NCBI RefSeq assembly: GCF_000349945.1
Contig: NC_020516.1
Span: 2,870,311 to 2,934,310, forward strand
Direction of reading: 5' to 3'
Length of the DNA: 64,000 bases
From: Azoarcus sp. KH32C
GTDB taxonomy: Bacteria; Pseudomonadota; Gammaproteobacteria; Burkholderiales; Rhodocyclaceae
Part shown: piece after piece, positions 2,185 to 36,818 of the stretch
Layout: every line of letters starts with the position of its first letter
Position numbering within the stretch: the first letter of the stretch is position 1
Position numbers and translations under genes: made by a program
The notes under the pieces: generated by a model
The model's database searches: none
What the model saw: the letters and a program-made list of their open reading frames with translations, nothing else
Told to the model about the DNA's origin: nothing

Positions 2185-4032
2185 ATGAATGAGATCGTGA
2201 AAGTCAGCGGCCTGCAGGTCGCCGCCCGCAACGCACTGGGCGAGGACGTGCCCATCGTCCATGGCGCGGACTTCGTGCTCGAGAAGGGCGAGGTGCTCGC
2301 GCTGATCGGCGAGTCCGGCTCGGGCAAGACCACCATTGCCCTGTCGCTGCTGGGTTATGCGCGCAAGGGCTGCCGCATCGTGGGCGGATCGGTGCGCATC
2401 TGCAACGTGGACGTGCTCAAGCTCGACCAGGACGAGCTCGCCGGGCTGCGCGGCCGCACCGTGTCCTACATCGCCCAGAGCGCGGCAGCGGCGTTCAATC
2501 CGTCCAAGACCATCATGGACCAGGTGATCGAGAGCGCGCTCATCCACAAGACGATGGCGCGCCGCCAGGCCGAGGCCAAGGCGGTCGGGCTGTTCCGCGA
2601 GCTCGCTCTGCCGGATCCGGAAGGGATCGGCGCGCGCTATCCGCACCAGGTCTCCGGCGGCCAGCTGCAGCGCCTGATGGCGGCGATGGCGCTCATCACC
2701 GATCCGGCGGTGGTCGTCCTTGACGAGCCGACCACGGCGCTCGACGTCACCACCCAGATCGAGGTGCTTCGCGCCTTCAAGAAGGTGGTCCGCGAGCGTG
2801 GCACCACGGCGGTCTACGTGTCCCACGACTTGGCGGTCGTCGCGCAGATGGCCGACCGCATCGTGGTGCTGCAAAACGGTCAGATCCAGGAAAACGGCCG
2901 CACCGAGCAGATCCTCTCCGCACCGGCTCACCCCTACACCCGCAGCCTGCTGGCCGCGATGGACCCCGCCTCCCGGGCCGCCGCGACCGTGAGCACACGG
3001 CAAGACCGGCAGGACGTCATCCTCGACGTGCGCGATCTCGAAGTGCGCTTCGGAAACGGAAAGGCCGGCGGCGGGAAGGTGGTCCTGCACGACATCAACC
3101 TGCAGATCCGCCGTGGTGCGACGGTGGGCGTGATCGGCGAGTCGGGCTCCGGCAAGACCACGCTGGCACGCGCCATCGCGGGCCTGGTCGCCCCGTCCGC
3201 GGGCCACGTCCTGCTCGACGGCAAGGCGCTCTCCCCGACGCTGGAAGGGCGCACGCGCGACCAGTTCCGCCGCGTGCAGTACGTGTTTCAGAACGCGGAC
3301 ACCGCGCTCAATCCGCAGCACTCGATCGAAGCCATCCTGTCGCGTCCGCTCAAGTTCTATCACGGCATGACGAGTGAGCAGCGGCGCAAGCGCGTGGCCG
3401 AGCTCCTCGACCTGGTGCGCCTGCCCCAGAGCGTGGCGCAGCGCCGCCCGGGCGAGCTCTCCGGCGGGCAGAAGCAGCGTATCAACCTCGCCCGCGCGCT
3501 CGCCGCCGAGCCCGACCTGATCCTGTGCGACGAGGTGACGTCGGCGCTGGACACCGTGGTCGGCGCGGCCATCCTCGAGCTGATGGCGGAGCTGCGCCGC
3601 GAGCTCAACGTGTCCTACATGTTCATCAGCCATGACCTCGGCACCGTGCGCTCCATCTGCGACGAGATCGTGGTGCTGTACGCGGGCCGCAAGGTCGAGG
3701 TGCGTCAGCGCGAGGCGAAGCAAGAGCCACCTTTCCACCCTTACTCTCACCTCCTGGACACCTCCATTCCCATGCTGCGCCGCGGCTGGCTGGAGGAGGT
3801 GACCGGACGCACGGCGGCGACGCTGCCGGCCCTTGCCGCCGGCCTCTCGCCGCAGACGGGCCTGTGCCCCTTCATCGACCGCTGTGCCCTGCGGGTGGAC
3901 GGCCTGTGCAATACCACCCCCCCACCGCTGCGGCAGCTCGCGGGCGGCGGCAGCATCCTCTGCCACCGCTCCGAGGAAGAACTCGTCCGCGCCCAGGGGA
4001 CACTCAAACTCGTTACAGGAGAAGCAGCATGA
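2185..4032 (+). CDS. ABC transporter ATP-binding protein with duplicated ATPase domains (DppD/DppF fusion)
   Basis: 615 aa. Two Walker A motifs (GESGSGKTT twice), two ABC signature LSGGQ motifs and Walker B/H-loops. Confidence 0.9.
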   Translation: MNEIVKVSGLQVAARNALGEDVPIVHGADFVLEKGEVLALIGESGSGKTTIALSLLGYARKGCRIVGGSVRICNVDVLKLDQDELAGLRGRTVSYIAQSAAAAFNPSKTIMDQVIESALIHKTMARRQAEAKAVGLFRELALPDPEGIGARYPHQVSGGQLQRLMAAMALITDPAVVVLDEPTTALDVTTQIEVLRAFKKVVRERGTTAVYVSHDLAVVAQMADRIVVLQNGQIQENGRTEQILSAPAHPYTRSLLAAMDPASRAAATVSTRQDRQDVILDVRDLEVRFGNGKAGGGKVVLHDINLQIRRGATVGVIGESGSGKTTLARAIAGLVAPSAGHVLLDGKALSPTLEGRTRDQFRRVQYVFQNADTALNPQHSIEAILSRPLKFYHGMTSEQRRKRVAELLDLVRLPQSVAQRRPGELSGGQKQRINLARALAAEPDLILCDEVTSALDTVVGAAILELMAELRRELNVSYMFISHDLGTVRSICDEIVVLYAGRKVEVRQREAKQEPPFHPYSHLLDTSIPMLRRGWLEEVTGRTAATLPALAAGLSPQTGLCPFIDRCALRVDGLCNTTPPPLRQLAGGGSILCHRSEEELVRAQGTLKLVTGEAA

Positions 4033-29171: not shown

Positions 29172-30770
<1,599 letters not shown>

Positions 30771-30908
30771 GGTTTTATCTTTTCGGATAAGTAACTCGAT
30801 ACAAGTCTATATTCCGCGCCCTGGTCTCGCTCGCCAGGATTTCACACGAAGGGAAACAGTGCCGTCGTATCAACGGCTTCGCGATTCGTTCGACGATCGC
30901 CATGCCGC

Positions 30909-30924
30909 TGGCACGCCTCTCGCA
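30909..30924 (+). promoter_or_regulatory. sigma-54 (-24/-12) promoter: TGGCACG-N4-TCGCA
   Basis: TGGCACGCCTCTCGCA matches the TGGCACG-N4-TTGCW consensus with GG and GC correctly spaced. It is oriented towards the slipin-rtcB genes and opposite the EBP gene rtcR. Confidence 0.65.
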
Positions 30925-31052
30925 ATAGGTGAAGCGATCGCCGACGCGCTGCAATGGCCCACGGGCCGGGGCTGAAGACCCCGCCGGTGCGCGGGAGCCG
31001 GAGTCCGCTCTGTCGTTCCTGCGTATGCCGCCGCCGTGTGGATGCGATCGCC

Positions 31053-31171
31053 GTGCGGTCCCCTGGAGGGGGCAACCGGGTTCGATTCCCGGGCCGCACT
31101 CGATTGGATAGCTCAGTCGGTAGAGCAGCTGCGATAGCAGCCTGTCGCGGGTTCGACTCCCGCTCCAAACC
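31053..31171 (+). ncRNA. tandem tRNA-like structured RNA in the rtc operon leader (Y-RNA/YrlA-like candidate, not a decoding tRNA)
   Basis: Module 1 (31053-31099): 7-bp acceptor-like stem GTGCGGT/GCCGCAC, a small hairpin and a T-arm CCGGG-TTCGATT-CCCGG. Module 2 (31102-31171): acceptor stem GATTGGA/TCCAAAC (6/7 bp), canonical D-arm GCTC-AGTCGGTA-GAGC and T-arm GCGGG-TTCGACT-CCCGC. Its anticodon arm is a 5-bp stem with a GATA tetraloop, so no anticodon loop and no CCA. Lies between the sigma-54 promoter and the slipin gene. Confidence 0.5.
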
Positions 31172-31430
31172 TGTCCTGACACGACAGTTGATGCAGCAGT
31201 ACCCGCCGGTTGCGGTGTGCGCGAGCACCCGCCGCCGGTCCGCCCGGCCCCCGGCCCGCCCTCGCGGCAGGGCGTTCGGCAAGGCGGCAGATGGGTTCCG
31301 CCGCTCCCCGGTGCCTCGGCGCCGTGGAGTACCGGACCGCCGGCCCCCTGCCCTGCGCCTCCCCGCCCGTGTCGGCCGGTTGGCCCGACGGACCGGCGCC
31401 CGACCGGCAACAACAAAAAGGAGAACGAAA

Positions 31431-32570
31431 ATGTTGAAGCGATTCGTGGTGAAGAAAGACGAGCGTGGCGCACTGCTCCGGGAGGCGGACTTCGAGCGCA
31501 TCCTGAAATCCGGGCGCTACCGGTTTTTTGATCCGTTCGGCCGGCTCTCGCTCGTCACGTGGAAGGCGGACGCTCCGATGACCGATCTCGGGATCGTCGA
31601 CTACCTGCTTCAACATGAACCGGCGGTCGCCGCCGAGCATTTCGAACGGATGGAGCTGACCGAAGACCAGGCCGGCCTGCGTTACGAGAACGACGTGCTA
31701 GTCGAAATCCTGCCGCCGGCAGCCCGCCGCTTCGTGTGGAAGGGCGTGGTACGGCATCGACTGGAGACGGTCGACCTGCGCGCCGGCTACGCCGTGGCGC
31801 CGGAGGTCGCCGCGCACCTGGTCCAGCCGGCCTTGCGCGGACGCGCCGTGATGGGGCTCGGTTATCTGCTGCTTGCGCAGGTGCCGGCCTATCACGTCGG
31901 CGTGCTGAAGGTGGACGGAAAGGTGCAACGGCTGATGCCGGCGGGAGTCGAAGGGTTCTGGCGTTTCAACCGGGACATCCAGGTCGAACTGGTCGATACG
32001 CGGCTGCAGAACATGGAGGTCAGCGGCCAGGAGATCCTGTCGCGCGACAAGGTCGGGCTGCGGCTCAACCTCGCGGCGACCTGGCGTTACACCGACGTGC
32101 TGCTGGCGTACGAGAAGCTGAGCAAGCCGGCCGATCACCTGTACCGTGAACTGCAGTTCGGTTTGCGGGCCGCCGTCGGGACGCGGGCCATCGACGAGCT
32201 GCTGGAGAACAAGCAGACGATCGACGAGGTCGTGGGCGACTATGTGGCCCGCAAGCTCGACGGTTTCGGGATCGAGGTGAGCAGCGTCGGGGTGAAGGAC
32301 ATCGTGCTGCCGGGGGAGATGAAGAACATCCTCGCGCAGGTCGTGGAGGCCGAAAAGTCGGCCGAGGCGAACGTGATCCGGCGCCGCGAGGAAACGGCCG
32401 CGACGCGCTCGCTGCTCAACACCGCGAAGGTGATGGAAGACAACCCGACGGCGCTGCGCCTGAAGGAGCTCGAGACGCTGGAAAGGGTCGCCGAGCGGAT
32501 CGACCGGATCTCGGTGTTCGGAGGCCTCGACCAGGTGCTGAGCGGGCTCGTGAGTATCAAGAATGCGTGA
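31431..32570 (+). CDS. slipin / SPFH (band-7, stomatin-like) domain protein
   Basis: 379 aa with strong RBS AAAAAGGAGAA. C-terminal ~250 aa show SPFH-domain hallmarks (…KVGLRLNLAATWRY…IDELLENKQTIDE…EAEKSAEANVIRRREE…). Start of rtcB overlaps its 3' end. Confidence 0.75.
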   Translation: MLKRFVVKKDERGALLREADFERILKSGRYRFFDPFGRLSLVTWKADAPMTDLGIVDYLLQHEPAVAAEHFERMELTEDQAGLRYENDVLVEILPPAARRFVWKGVVRHRLETVDLRAGYAVAPEVAAHLVQPALRGRAVMGLGYLLLAQVPAYHVGVLKVDGKVQRLMPAGVEGFWRFNRDIQVELVDTRLQNMEVSGQEILSRDKVGLRLNLAATWRYTDVLLAYEKLSKPADHLYRELQFGLRAAVGTRAIDELLENKQTIDEVVGDYVARKLDGFGIEVSSVGVKDIVLPGEMKNILAQVVEAEKSAEANVIRRREETAATRSLLNTAKVMEDNPTALRLKELETLERVAERIDRISVFGGLDQVLSGLVSIKNA

Positions 32571-33795
32571 GAGAAAAATGGATTTCCAGTTGCTGGAAGT
32601 GGAAAACGGCAAGCCGATCAAGATGTGGACATCGGGCGTGCCGGTCGAGGACGAGGCGCGCCGGCAGTTGATGGCGACGGCCTCGATGCCCTTCATATAC
32701 AGGCACATCGCGGTGATGCCGGACGTGCATCTGGGCAAGGGATCGACGATCGGCAGCGTGATCCCGACCCGCGGTGCGATCATTCCCGCGGCGGTCGGCG
32801 TCGATATCGGCTGCGGGATGATCGCCGCCCGCACGACGCTGACGGCGAAAGATCTGCCGGACAACCTGCACCGCCTGCGGACCGCGATCGAACACGCGGT
32901 GCCGCACGGGCGCACCACCCCGCGCGCGGGCCGTGACGTCGGCGCCTGGGAGAGGACGCCGGCCGAGGTCGATGCGGCCTGGCGCGCGCTGCTGCCGGGC
33001 TTCAACCGCATCACGGAAAAGTATCCGAAGCTGAAGAACACGAACAACTACAAGCACCTCGGGACGCTCGGGACCGGCAACCATTTCATCGAGGTGTGCA
33101 TCGACGAGGAGGACCGCGTCTGGTTCATGCTGCATTCGGGGTCACGCGGCGTCGGCAATGCGATCGGCAACCTGTTCATCGAACTGGCGCAGGTGGACAT
33201 GCGCGAGCACCTCGCGAATCTGCCCGACCGCGATCTCGCGTACTTCAAGGAAGGCAGCAAGCATTTCGACGACTACGTCGAGGCGGTCGGCTGGGCGCAG
33301 GACTATGCGCGGCGCAATCGCGCGGTGATGATGCATCACGTCGTGGAGGCGGCCCGGTCGGTGATCGGGAAGGCTTTCGCGGCGGACGTCGAAGCCGTGA
33401 ACTGCCACCACAACTACGTCCAGCGCGAAACACATTTCGGCGCGGATATCTTCGTCACGCGCAAGGGAGCCGTTTCGGCGCGCAAGGGTGAGCTCGGCAT
33501 CATCCCGGGATCGATGGGCGCAAAAAGCTACATCGTCCGCGGACTCGGCAACGAGGAAGCGTTCTGCTCCTGCAGCCACGGTGCGGGACGGGTGATGAGC
33601 CGCAACGAGGCGAAGCGACGGTTCACGGTCGAGGATCAGGTCAGGGCGACGGCCCACGTCGAATGCCGCAAGGATCGCGACGTGATCGACGAGATCCCGA
33701 TGGCCTACAAGGACATCGACCGTGTGATGGAGGCGCAGCGCGAACTGGTCGAAGTCGTGCATACGCTGCGCCAGGTGGTGTGCGTGAAGGGCTGA
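32563..33795 (+). CDS. rtcB: RNA-splicing ligase RtcB
   Basis: 410 aa. Conserved RtcB motifs (DVHLGKGSTIGSV, GCGM, metal-binding His/Cys, NHNYV, GSMGAKSYIV, HGAGR). Confidence 0.9.
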   Translation: MRERKMDFQLLEVENGKPIKMWTSGVPVEDEARRQLMATASMPFIYRHIAVMPDVHLGKGSTIGSVIPTRGAIIPAAVGVDIGCGMIAARTTLTAKDLPDNLHRLRTAIEHAVPHGRTTPRAGRDVGAWERTPAEVDAAWRALLPGFNRITEKYPKLKNTNNYKHLGTLGTGNHFIEVCIDEEDRVWFMLHSGSRGVGNAIGNLFIELAQVDMREHLANLPDRDLAYFKEGSKHFDDYVEAVGWAQDYARRNRAVMMHHVVEAARSVIGKAFAADVEAVNCHHNYVQRETHFGADIFVTRKGAVSARKGELGIIPGSMGAKSYIVRGLGNEEAFCSCSHGAGRVMSRNEAKRRFTVEDQVRATAHVECRKDRDVIDEIPMAYKDIDRVMEAQRELVEVVHTLRQVVCVKG

Positions 33796-33907: not shown

Positions 33908-35980
33908 ATGCGTGCGTTGCGTTCATCCCTCCTCGGCAAATACCGCCTGCTGGTGCTGGCTGTTGCGGCGTTCTTCGCGCTCAGCGTCAGCGTGTACTCG
34001 CTCAACTTCCTGATGCTTCGCCAAGTCGACCTCGACGCGACGAGGATCAACGACGGCGGGAAGTTGCGCGGGTACTCGCAGCAGCTGGCGAAGGCGATCC
34101 TTACGCTCTCCCACGAGTCGTCGCAGGGCGAGCCGATCCAGACCAGCCAGGCGCAGATTTCGGAAGCCGTCCTGGCCTTCGATCAGTCGCTCACGGAAAT
34201 TCGCAGTTTGGCGAGCGAGGACCACGACCCGACCGAGCAGCAACTGTTGGACGAGATCGATAAGCAATGGACGCCGCTGCGCGATGCGGCGAACGCGCTG
34301 ATCGGCGAGCGACCATTCAGCGAAACGGACGTGCAGGCCACCTTCACGCTCAGCGACACGCGGAACGTGCGTCTGTTGCAGCTCGCGGGCGACCTGACCC
34401 AGCACCAGGAGGCCCTTGCAGCCGAGCGGGCGCAGTCGATGCGTTACCTGCAGTTCGGCGCGATCGGGCTCGCGCTGCTCAATTTCCTCTACATCGTCGT
34501 CCACGTCTTCCGCAGTCTGCGCCGCAGCGACCGCGAGGCCGAGCAGGCGCGCCGCGAAACCGACGACATCCTGCGCACGGTGCGCGAGGGGCTCTTCCTG
34601 ATGCATCGGGACGGCACGGTCGGGACGCAGCGCTCGGCGCATCTCGCGAAGGTGTTTCCGCAGCCGCTGGCGCCCGGACACAACTTCCTGACGATGCTCG
34701 CGACGCTGGTCTCCGACGAAACGATGCAGTCGGTCCGGCAGTACGTGGAGCTGCTGTTCAACGAACGGGTGAAACCGGCCTTGCTGGCGGACCTTAATCC
34801 GCTGAATCGCGTCGAGATCGCGCCACAGGGACGCGGCCGGACGATGCACCTGAACTTCGGCTTCCATCCGGTGCGCGGCGAAGGCGGCACGGGGATCGAC
34901 GCCCTCCTCGTCGCGGCCGTCGACGTCAGCCAGGAGGTGCGGCTGGAGCAGGAGCTGGCGGGCGCCGAGGAGCGCGCGCGCAACGAGGTTTCGCTGCTGC
35001 TTGGCGTGCTGGAGAACGAGCCGGCGGAGGTGATGCGCTTCCTCGCCGAGGCGAAAGCAAGGCTAGAACGGGCGAACGGCGTGCTGCGGGACGTGCCGGT
35101 CGAAGTCGGCGCCTATCTCGCGGCCGTCACGCGAGTGTTCCGGGAAGTTCACACGATCAAGGGCGAGGCTGCGGCGCTGTCGATGGGCACCGTCGCCGCC
35201 CAGGCGCACGAGTTCGAGGACGTCCTCACGGCGCTCGTCAAGCGGCGGAATCTCGGCGGCGACGACCTGATCCCGGTCGCGACCGGCATTGGCCATCTGA
35301 TGCAAGAGCTGGCGAAAGTCGATGCCGTGGTCGGGCGGATCGGCGCCTTCACGCGTGTCGCCCCGGGACGGGACACTTCCGCCGCCGACGTGGCAGGCAA
35401 GGACGCAAGCGCCGACGACTGCGTCTACCAGTCGATGCAGCGCATCCAGCGCTTCGCCCTGTCGGTTGCGGCCGAGCTCAACAAGAAGCTGCGCGTCGAG
35501 ACCTCCCTGCCCCACGTCGAGGATGTGCCGGCGTCCGTGCACCGCGTGCTGCGCGAGGGACTGCCGCAGCTCGTTCGCAATGCGGTCGTGCACGGCATCG
35601 AAAGTGCCGACGAGCGCCGCCTTGCGGGCAAGCAGGAGGAAGGCCGGTTGCGCATCGAGTTTCAGCGCACTGCCGATGGCGGACTCGAACTGACGGTCGC
35701 CGACGACGGCCGCGGGATCGATGTCGCGGCCTTGCGGCGGCATCTCGTCGACGCCGGCTATCGCGATGCCGACGCAGTCCAGGCGATGAGCGATCGCGAG
35801 GTCGTCGCGACGCTCTTCGAGCCGGGCGTGTCGACTGCGGCGAGCGTCACCGAGCATGCGGGCCGCGGCGTTGGCCTGGATGCGATCAGCGCGCTCGCAC
35901 GCGAGACCGGCGCGCGGCTGAAGCTCGCCTCCACCCCGCGCACCTACACGCGCTTCACCCTTCAATGGAGCCCGACATGA
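33908..35980 (+). CDS. membrane-anchored CheA-like sensor kinase (periplasmic sensor, Hpt domain, CheA-type HATPase; no CheW-like P5 domain)
   Basis: 690 aa. Two TM segments (aa ~14-36 and ~196-217) flank a ~160 aa periplasmic region. Hpt motif FREVHTIKGEAA. CheA N-box LVRNAVVHGIE and G-boxes (DDGRGID, GRGVGLD). Protein ends right after the ATPase domain. Confidence 0.7.
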   Translation: MRALRSSLLGKYRLLVLAVAAFFALSVSVYSLNFLMLRQVDLDATRINDGGKLRGYSQQLAKAILTLSHESSQGEPIQTSQAQISEAVLAFDQSLTEIRSLASEDHDPTEQQLLDEIDKQWTPLRDAANALIGERPFSETDVQATFTLSDTRNVRLLQLAGDLTQHQEALAAERAQSMRYLQFGAIGLALLNFLYIVVHVFRSLRRSDREAEQARRETDDILRTVREGLFLMHRDGTVGTQRSAHLAKVFPQPLAPGHNFLTMLATLVSDETMQSVRQYVELLFNERVKPALLADLNPLNRVEIAPQGRGRTMHLNFGFHPVRGEGGTGIDALLVAAVDVSQEVRLEQELAGAEERARNEVSLLLGVLENEPAEVMRFLAEAKARLERANGVLRDVPVEVGAYLAAVTRVFREVHTIKGEAAALSMGTVAAQAHEFEDVLTALVKRRNLGGDDLIPVATGIGHLMQELAKVDAVVGRIGAFTRVAPGRDTSAADVAGKDASADDCVYQSMQRIQRFALSVAAELNKKLRVETSLPHVEDVPASVHRVLREGLPQLVRNAVVHGIESADERRLAGKQEEGRLRIEFQRTADGGLELTVADDGRGIDVAALRRHLVDAGYRDADAVQAMSDREVVATLFEPGVSTAASVTEHAGRGVGLDAISALARETGARLKLASTPRTYTRFTLQWSPT

Positions 35981-36348
35981 AAGCGAGACTGCTGATCGTC
36001 GATGATTCGATGGTGATCCGGAACCTGATCGCCCGCCAGATGCTCGACGAGCGCCTGCCGCCGATGGACGTTGTCGGGCTGGCGGCCGACGGCGAGCAGG
36101 CGCTGGCGATCGCGCTGTCGAAGCACCCCGACTTCATCACGATGGATCTGACGATGCCCAACATGGACGGCGAGGCCTGCATCGAACGCCTCGCGGCGGT
36201 GCTGCCGAGCGCCAGGATCATGGTGGTGTCCGCCCTCAGCGACAAGACGACGGCGCTGCGCGCCATCAGCAAAGGCGCCCACGGCTTTCTGCACAAACCC
36301 TTTACCGACGAACAACTGGTCGCCGCCCTGCTGGAGTTGATGAGTTGA
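35965..36348 (+). CDS. CheY-like response regulator (receiver domain only)
   Basis: LLIVDDS, phospho-acceptor D in FITMDLTMPNMDG and a conserved Lys. Start may instead be the ATG at 35977 (MKARLL), which overlaps the upstream stop. Confidence 0.85.
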   Translation: MEPDMKARLLIVDDSMVIRNLIARQMLDERLPPMDVVGLAADGEQALAIALSKHPDFITMDLTMPNMDGEACIERLAAVLPSARIMVVSALSDKTTALRAISKGAHGFLHKPFTDEQLVAALLELMS

Positions 36349-36818
36349 ACTACCGCGCGCTGAATCACGAAGACATCGAAGTGTTCTCCGAGGCGATCTC
36401 CGCCTTCTTCCTCAACATGACCCACGAGCCGGCCATGGTGCGCACGGCCTACATGCTGGAGGGGAGCACTCCGCCGCTCTGGGGCGATTTCAACGGGGTG
36501 ATCGAGGTCTCAGGCGGCTTTCGCGGCAGCATTACCTTCTCGGCCCCGGGGGGGATGCTCGGGCAGGTGCTCGACGTCATGGGAGAAAGGGAGCAGTCGG
36601 CCGACCGCTGCCTGGACGTGGTCGGCGAGATCGCCAACATGATGTCAGGGCGGGCGCGTCGCCATTTCGGCGAGGATCTGACGATCGCGCCGCCGAAAGC
36701 CTGCCTTCGCTCTGCGCGGCACACGCTGCCCGGTGCGAGCGGGACCCCGTACGCAATTCCGTTGCGCTGGCGGACCTTCGAGGCCAACCTGGTCGTGCAC
36801 CTGGACATCCGCCGATAG
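36345..36818 (+). CDS. CheX-like chemotaxis phosphatase
   Basis: 157 aa. CheX/CheC-family motif (DVVGEIANMMSGRA). Start overlaps the upstream stop. Confidence 0.65.
   Translation: MNYRALNHEDIEVFSEAISAFFLNMTHEPAMVRTAYMLEGSTPPLWGDFNGVIEVSGGFRGSITFSAPGGMLGQVLDVMGEREQSADRCLDVVGEIANMMSGRARRHFGEDLTIAPPKACLRSARHTLPGASGTPYAIPLRWRTFEANLVVHLDIRR

Follow-up and report, generated by a model that had tools for sequence, protein, structure and literature searches.

RtcB/RtcR RNA-repair operons are widespread. YrlA (RF02553; Chen et al. 2014, Wang et al. 2018) is a tRNA elbow mimic found in RtcR-controlled RtcB operons; it is circularly permuted, in that a loop closes the acceptor while the 5′ and 3′ ends come together in a Ro60-binding stem, and it is encoded beside rsr, the gene for the Ro60 ortholog (10.1101/312249). 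A second RNA, b7a-tRNA ("band 7-associated tRNA"), is a tRNA-like noncoding RNA that Burroughs and Aravind (2016) predicted computationally beside Band-7/RtcB genes; as summarized by Wang et al. (10.1101/312249), functional redundancy with YrlA was proposed for it, and it had not been validated experimentally. Here we describe a tRNA-like element of this second kind in the leader of a slipin–rtcB operon of Azoarcus sp. KH32C, which lies in a 64-kb stretch of the genome (hereafter the window; all coordinates refer to it, and the leader is numbered on the (+) strand).

A related element has been annotated in Pseudomonas aeruginosa PAO1, where PA4581.1 carries the label tRNA-Arg4, lacks CCA and has an odd D loop (PMC13637947). 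This gene is located between rtcR (PA4581) and PA4582–rtcB–rtcA (PMC13637947, PMC8619066, PMC13086221), PA4582 being the slipin PaFlo8 (PMC13086221). Quantitative reverse transcription PCR detected PA4581.1, and its level was similar whether or not rtc was induced (PMC13637947). The regulator RtcR responds to damaged tRNAs (PMC7790460, PMC11090510) and is activated by cyclic-phosphate tRNA fragments (PMC7790460). In this study, we give b7a-tRNA a precise anatomy, with exact boundaries and two modules that are reduced to different degrees, and the comparative data define where selection acts on it, namely on the elbow and acceptor rather than on the anticodon.

Results and discussion

Conservation of the operon layout

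A slipin-alignment scan restricted to one genome per species yielded 80 loci (L001–L080) of at least 552 relatives, which represent Rhodocyclales, Burkholderia and its relatives, and Pseudomonas (beta- and gammaproteobacteria). The order rtcR, sigma-54 promoter, two tRNA-like modules, slipin and rtcB, with rtcR pointing away from the rest, recurs in about 70 of the 80 loci; an rtcR homolog is divergent upstream in 68, and rtcB follows on the same strand in 72. ARAGORN reported a tRNA-like gene on the slipin strand approximately 250–330 nt upstream of slipin in 60 loci, and two abutting tRNA-like genes in 20 loci, nearly all from Pseudomonas. Covariance model R1, built from 60 homologs of the second module together with the hairpin that follows it, matched at more than 60 bits in 71 loci, always at this same distance from slipin, and gave a single match in the window (94.8 bits). 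The analysis shows the identity, conservation, secondary structure and operon layout of the leader.

An element of the form CTGGCACG-N4-TCGCWAT is present 450–575 nt upstream of the slipin ATG in approximately 70 of the 80 loci. Nearly all of them have TCGC at the −12 element where the consensus has TTGC, and a sigma-54 pattern search demanding TTGC at −12 missed almost every locus. No sigma-70-like site was found in 30600–31600. The window has both a divergent rtcR and a −24/−12 promoter upstream of rtcB, the arrangement by which RtcR/sigma-54-controlled Rtc operons are recognized. An earlier reading of this DNA from its letters (the sequence-only reading) had placed a sigma-54 promoter opposite rtcR and two abutting tRNA-like modules in the slipin leader, and both were recovered at the positions it gave. 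It had also taken the modules to be the first product of the RtcR-facing promoter; the conserved layout supports this, and the modules would lie at the start of the slipin–rtcB transcript.

Table 1. Features of the rtcR–slipin–rtcB locus in the Azoarcus sp. KH32C window
Feature	Position	Strand	Description and evidence
Sigma-54 promoter, TGGCACGCCTCTCGCA	30909..30924	+	−24 GG and −12 GC spacing; TCGC in place of TTGC; faces rtcR
5′ domain, three-way junction	30934..31051	+	closing helix P0 30934-41/31044-51; RNAalifold, minimum free energy (MFE) fold
Module 1, mini-tRNA	31053..31099	+	7-bp acceptor and T arm, no anticodon arm; single-sequence MFE fold
Module 2, full cloverleaf tRNA mimic (b7a-tRNA)	31102..31171	+	ARAGORN, Rfam tRNA, covariation
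Hairpin C-TGTC-CTGACAC-GACA-G	31171..31187	+	abuts 3′ end of module 2 acceptor; covarying pairs
3′ domain, ~200-nt rod	31205..31408	+	helices 31205-10/31402-08, 31233-42/31389-98, 31258-67/31363-72
Shine-Dalgarno (SD) sequence GGAGA	31420-24	+	unstructured A-rich ribosome-binding region 31420..31433; slipin ATG at 31431
rtcR	29172..30770	−	Pfam RtcR 2.3e-86 and Sigma54_activat 8.2e-49; CARF-domain sigma-54-dependent activator, divergent from operon
Slipin (SPFH/Band-7), 379 aa	31431..32570	+	Pfam Band_7 1.2e-26
RtcB RNA ligase	32563..33795	+	Pfam RtcB 7.2e-132

Anatomy and covariation of module 2

The Rfam tRNA model, whose cut-off is 29 bits, gave module 2 a score of 46.1 bits (E = 1.2e-6 for the full window), and tRNA was the single Rfam family above threshold in the window. 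Since the gathering score of the tRNA-type cloverleaf is reached, we call the element a mimic rather than an unrelated structure. ARAGORN likewise found no other tRNA-like gene in the 64 kb and called this one tRNA-???, with a 4-nt anticodon loop. Much of the anatomy proposed in the sequence-only reading held, including the D arm GCTC-AGTCGGTA-GAGC, the T arm GCGGG-TTCGACT-CCCGC, a 5-bp anticodon stem (GCTGC/GCAGC) capped by GATA (GAUA in the RNA), and the lack of CCA. Its 7-bp acceptor did not hold, because only six of the seven pairs form in the window, with an A31103/A31169 mismatch at the second pair. Among the 60 homologs, only the inner 5–6 acceptor pairs are conserved, and pair 1:72 is unpaired in 47 of them. 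"Positions 1–2" of module 2 are unpaired because they belong to the tail of module 1.

In the alignment of the 60 homologs (A2), standard pairs fill 92% of the cells, and compensatory double changes occur at 15 pairs. None of 500 shuffles reached this covariation and all slid controls were lower, so that conservation and covariation in related rtcR–rtcB loci, the check that the sequence-only reading had called for, came out in favour of a structured element. Every pair of the anticodon stem covaries, as do the inner acceptor, the T stem and the 3′ hairpin; in this hairpin, column 87:102 is CG in 31 and UA in 20 sequences and column 85:104 is UA in 47 and AU in 6. No variation is seen in the D stem GCTC/GAGC and very little in the T arm GCGGG-TTCGAnT-CCCGC. 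The Levitt pair (15:48) had no covariation support by eye, several sequences with A15 retaining C48. The 3′ hairpin is not a terminator, as no T-run follows.

The anticodon loop behaves quite differently from this conserved body. Its length is 7 nt in 34 homologs, 6 nt in 15, 5 nt in 5 and 4 nt in 6, and its sequences are unrelated (CTCATCA, CTTCGG, GAAA, GCAA, GATA and others), without a conserved triplet. The identities assigned by ARAGORN vary by species among Met, Ile, Thr, Val, Arg, Leu, Ser and undetermined. Module 2 has neither a 7-nt loop with a conserved anticodon nor a 7-bp acceptor followed by CCA, the features expected of a decoding tRNA. With a variable anticodon loop on a conserved, covarying body, it is the elbow and acceptor of the tRNA that selection maintains, and not a decoding function. 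Module 2 is, as judged from these comparisons, an elbow/acceptor mimic and not a decoding tRNA, in agreement with the sequence-only reading, which had argued for a tRNA mimic in place of a tRNA gene.

Anatomy and variation of module 1

Module 1 consists of a 7-bp acceptor (GTGCGGT/GCCGCAC), a T arm (CCGGG-TTCGATT-CCCGG) and a 16-nt insert that forms a CCCC-TGGA-GGGG hairpin followed by GCAA. The sequence-only reading had recognized the acceptor stem and the T arm and had concluded that a D arm was absent; the missing part is better taken to be the anticodon arm, with a GG-containing hairpin standing at the place of the D arm. Homologs of module 1 lie directly 5′ of module 2 in 67 loci, where each acceptor position shows 3–6 Watson-Crick pair types. 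Because the MAFFT alignment (A3) misplaced 5′ acceptor strands, module 1 was parsed by its T-arm anchor and evaluated with a shuffle control. A perfect 7/7 acceptor was found in 23 of 51 distinct sequences as compared with 6.4% when the 3′ strand was shuffled; matches of 6/7 are common by chance in this control, and only the 7/7 excess and the fixed position are informative.

The degree of reduction differs between lineages. In Rhodocyclales and Burkholderia, including the window, an insert of 12–16 nt replaces the D and anticodon arms, whereas module 1 is a full cloverleaf in 19 loci, nearly all from Pseudomonas, with the same TAGCTCA...GGTAGAGC D arm. Two complete cloverleaf mimics, overlapping by 1–5 nt in ARAGORN coordinates (~3060–3250), were observed in L031, L034, L039 and L048–L056, and likewise in L061, L064, L066, L072, L076 and L080. 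These paired-cloverleaf loci are nearly all from Pseudomonas, and the anticodon loops of both copies are non-canonical or variable.

In 20 of 43 relatives with the reduced form (L003, L004, L008, L011, L017, L018, L021 and L073–L075 among them), the module 1 acceptor is followed by (N)CCA, which leads directly into the conserved (C/T)TGGA of module 2; the window has TCGA, not CCA, at this site (31100–31103). The N-CCA suggests descent from, or maturation like that of, a CCA-encoding tRNA gene, and it also suggests that cleavage at the 5′ edge of the module 2 helix would free a mini-tRNA ending in CCA. We found no description of this feature in the literature searched, which did not include the original b7a-tRNA paper, and it may be new.

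Structured domains flanking the modules

Conservation extends past the two modules and reaches the sequence level in the 5′ domain and in the strands of the rod. Within the 5′ three-way junction, an outer helix (30956-58/31030-32) is accompanied by a hairpin (30964-71/30979-85) and by a helix (30986-98/31015-29) that bears the invariant GTATGCCGCC. RNAalifold on 56 loci revealed compensatory pairs at 30992:31021 (CG38/GC17), 30994:31019 (GC31/AT18) and 30997:31016 (GC16/CG16/AT14), and the MFE fold agrees with this structure. In the window the closing helix P0 pairs GCGATCGC with GCGATCGC, and in Pseudomonas it pairs TCGACCG with CGGTCGA at the equivalent positions; its 5′ strand opens the predicted transcript, and its 3′ strand immediately precedes module 1.

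The 3′ rod is supported by an alignment (A4) of 27 pairs, 94% paired and 22 with double changes, whose covariation score of 0.476 was not reached in any of 500 shuffles and fell to at most 0.11 when slid. RNAalifold extends the rod to approximately 45 pairs, and the single-sequence MFE fold of the whole leader gives the same rod. It carries a side hairpin (31212-15/31229-32) and a variable tip (31275–31355), and its irregular stem ends 12 nt before the SD sequence. The SD/ATG region itself is unpaired in both the MFE and the consensus folds. Neither the 5′ nor the 3′ domain matched any Rfam family, even at E values up to 10. Judging from these folds and alignments, the ~500-nt leader is one conserved structured RNA composed of the 5′ three-way junction, module 1, module 2, the hairpin and the rod, and the two outer domains may be protein-binding or processing parts. 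The element itself is not new; the full architecture of the leader may be, as the literature searched, to which the same restriction applies as above, contained no description of it.

Two further structures were tried and rejected. A third tRNA-like module at 30945–30991, indicated by a weak match to the mascRNA model, has an unconserved "T loop", and the 5′ three-way junction uses this segment as one of its hairpin arms. Long-range pairing of 30983-89 with 31204-10 involves palindromic CCGG cores and shows only G-U changes, and 30983-89 is already engaged in a covarying local helix.

A stop-free, GC-rich frame runs 159 codons upstream of the slipin ATG and through the tRNA-like modules, and an extended slipin is annotated in some database entries (proteins P0006, 525 aa, and P0018, 475 aa). 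The corresponding open reading frame (ORF; 30954–32570, (+) strand) was examined as an N-terminally extended slipin and discarded, as in-frame stops occur within 48 nt of the ATG in 20 of 70 relatives. By this comparison the extension is an unconserved artefact, and the leader is non-coding.

Comparison with known tRNA-like RNAs

Module 2 combines the adjacency to Band-7/SPFH and rtcB genes with the tRNA resemblance described for b7a-tRNA, and the arrangement recurs in 71 of the 80 loci. We therefore regard the tRNA-like element as b7a-tRNA, already known as a 2016 prediction, matched here by a secondary description together with an identical genomic context; none of the features tested speaks against this assignment. 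No further paper describing b7a-tRNA was found in the literature searched, and Rfam has no family for it. With the class predicted in 2016 and the P. aeruginosa copy annotated as tRNA-Arg4, the novelty implied by the sequence-only reading was overstated.

PA4581.1 has the same intergenic position and operon type as the window element and also lacks CCA. It is annotated as a decoding tRNA, against which the comparative data from the sampled loci, the PAO1 sequence itself not being one of them, argue. Among the Pseudomonas loci, module 2 was read by ARAGORN as tRNA-Arg(ACG) five times and as tRNA-Arg(CCG) twice, and the annotation of the Pseudomonas copy as tRNA-Arg is probably misleading. Most of the sampled Pseudomonas loci differ from the window in having two full cloverleaves, whereas module 1 of the window is reduced.

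The likeness to YrlA is of another kind. Both RNAs mimic the tRNA elbow in RtcR-controlled RtcB operons, both lack CCA and anticodon function, and the YrlA consensus has a D stem (GCUC/GAGC, with the flanking TA) and a T stem (GCGGG/CCCGC) identical to those of module 2 (31111–31126 and 31147–31163). The simplest reading of these common stems is a shared tRNA-elbow-recognizing partner or a common origin, and they would point to the former in particular. In topology, however, the window element is unlike YrlA, with open acceptors in both modules, a capped anticodon stem, two modules instead of one permuted unit, and no rsr nearby. The absence of rsr, noted in the sequence-only reading, was borne out among the Pfam-scanned flanking genes, the rest of the window not having been scanned protein by protein. 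The YrlA model gave 21.8 bits against a cut-off of 69 (E = 0.055), at 31076–31126 and over model positions 31–81 only; this match spans the junction of the modules, with the module 1 T arm and the module 2 D arm linked through sequence that does not pair. No YrlA reached the gathering score anywhere in the window. The Ro-binding motif GNCGAAN0-1G is absent from the window leader, and in 34 of 70 relatives it occurs at scattered, non-homologous positions. Of the resemblance to YrlA that the sequence-only reading had drawn, what stands is that of a functional counterpart in rsr-less RtcB operons, a proposal that 10.1101/312249 attributes to Burroughs and Aravind (2016); membership in the Y RNAs does not.

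The eukaryotic mascRNA and menRNA provide a more distant parallel, as they too are tRNA-shaped modules inside long transcripts, with a reduced or non-canonical anticodon arm. They are excised by RNase P and RNase Z, whereas processing of the Azoarcus leader is only inferred. The mascRNA model matched module 1 weakly (15.4 bits against a cut-off of 42.5).

Possible roles of the leader RNA

We moderately favour the view that the leader RNA with its two tRNA-shaped modules is a non-decoding RNA partner of slipin and RtcB, made under RtcR/sigma-54 control. Activation of RtcR by cyclic-phosphate tRNA fragments would lead to synthesis of the leader RNA together with slipin and RtcB. Selection would maintain the acceptor/T-arm stack and the elbow formed by the D and T loops in an RNA that does not decode. 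The RNA could then serve as a scaffold or cofactor for the cytoplasmic SPFH protein and RtcB, offering a tRNA-shaped surface to a tRNA-recognizing factor, as proposed for YrlA with Ro60. It would probably be excised by tRNA-processing enzymes, perhaps also by a double-strand-specific RNase acting at the rod, and RNase P could cut at the 7-bp acceptor of module 1, as it does in Mycobacterium smegmatis YrlA with an acceptor of this length (PMC4201824). We infer the co-transcription, processing, binding partners and function of the leader RNA. Several points weigh against this view. Binding of the RNA by slipin or RtcB is a proposal, as are the transcript and its processing; the assignment to b7a-tRNA relies on a secondary description plus identical context; and the flat "tRNA-Arg4" signal in P. 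aeruginosa misfits strictly RtcR-dependent synthesis, cross-detection being possible (PMC13637947).

A more ambitious version, which we put forward tentatively, would make the whole ~500-nt multi-domain leader the functional unit and the equivalent, in the SPFH world, of an entire Y RNA. Slipin oligomers would use the rod as a platform in the way that Ro60 uses the Y RNA stem, the modules would recruit RtcB or another tRNA-binding enzyme, and RNase P maturation at the module 1/2 junction would release a mini-tRNA with N-CCA.

It is rather unlikely that the leader acts purely in cis, with the modules as RNase P or 3′-processing signals and the rod as an RNase III-type site, so that the slipin–rtcB mRNA depends on cleavage for its 5′ end, stability and translation and the excised pieces are functionless. 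Such an arrangement would accord with the location of the modules inside the 5′ untranslated region and not in a separate gene, with a rod that stops 12 nt before the unstructured SD sequence, and with the 7-bp acceptor and T arm of module 1, which RNase P requires; the cleavage of M. smegmatis YrlA mentioned above is a precedent. A processing signal, however, needs neither an invariant D arm and D and T stems identical to those of YrlA, nor tandem modules over such phylogenetic depth, nor sequence-level conservation of the 5′ domain and rod strands. Moreover, processing and function in trans are compatible with each other.

A role as decoy or sensor appears improbable. In this case, the modules would be cut by tRNA-targeting nucleases, either sparing the real tRNAs or giving cyclic-phosphate fragments to the CARF domain of RtcR, and the position of the RNA as the first product of an RtcR-controlled promoter would suit either purpose. 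Yet the anticodon loop, where tRNA nucleases usually cut, shows the lowest conservation, measuring 4–6 nt in 26 of 60 homologs and often forming a UUCG- or GNRA-type cap (GAUA in the window), although nucleases that cut the acceptor stem or T loop would remain compatible. For YrlA, a competitive-inhibitor role has been suggested, but Salmonella YrlA is not cleaved by the RecA-dependent nuclease (PMC7790460).

That the element is an orphan YrlA-type Y RNA working without Ro60, as the sequence-only reading had suggested, is very improbable and, as family membership, refuted: the shared D and T stems, the operon type and the weak Rfam match speak for it, but the score is far below the cut-off, the match bridges two modules, the open acceptor and closed anticodon stem are the reverse of the permuted YrlA topology, and both the Ro-binding motif in the leader and rsr among the flanking genes are missing. 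Equally hard to credit is an ordinary decoding tRNA, as in the PAO1 annotation, or a decaying pseudogene remnant, the latter named in the sequence-only reading as the finding that would count against a mimic: the element passes the Rfam tRNA cut-off, 34 of 60 homologs have a 7-nt loop of the form YU-NNN-RN, and ARAGORN offers Met, Ile, Arg and other identities, but the "anticodons" differ among close relatives, the window loop has 4 nt, the module 2 acceptor has 5–6 bp and no CCA, and neutral decay is excluded by the fact that Rhodocyclales, Burkholderia and Pseudomonas all preserve its position, synteny and covariation.

Gene context

The start of rtcB and the stop of slipin overlap by 8 nt. 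The window slipin is 100% identical to that of Azoarcus sp. KH32C and belongs to a family with more than 7800 close relatives; a transmembrane segment is not apparent in it. Its residues 1–145 (31431–31860) form an N-terminal region outside the Pfam Band_7 match, the first ~80 residues of which AlphaFold predicts as a confident beta-rich domain (predicted local distance difference test (pLDDT) 80–92); we consider this region a candidate RNA- or RtcB-binding domain. The AlphaFold2 model of slipin as a whole, made in search of an N-terminal domain that binds RNA, had a mean pLDDT of 46 and was too poor to use. Scanning viral contigs for slipin returned one truncated locus, and a plasmid search returned only unannotated Burkholderia secondary replicons.

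No rtcA or archease gene follows rtcB at this locus. Straight after rtcB (33908–36818, (+) strand) lies a chemotaxis-like cluster comprising a PilJ/Hpt/HATPase histidine kinase, a response regulator and a CheX-like phosphatase. Upstream of rtcR are an ORF without a Pfam match and a gene for a DnaJ-domain protein.

Three Burkholderiales loci, L074 (1751–2922), L073 (1966–2307) and L075 (1994–2256), have neither rtcR nor the sigma-54 promoter; in their place, tRNA genes of ordinary appearance form a same-strand array immediately upstream of the b7a leader–slipin(–rtcB). The array of L074 comprises seven tRNAs (Leu, Pro, Glu, Asp, Ser, Arg and His) and is followed by an HNH endonuclease ORF (Pfam HNH_5, 1.2e-15). 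This arrangement of tRNA array, HNH and slipin recalls the set regulated in Anabaena by TrcR, which co-regulates a stress-induced tRNA operon, HNH, slipin and rtcB (PMC10272220).

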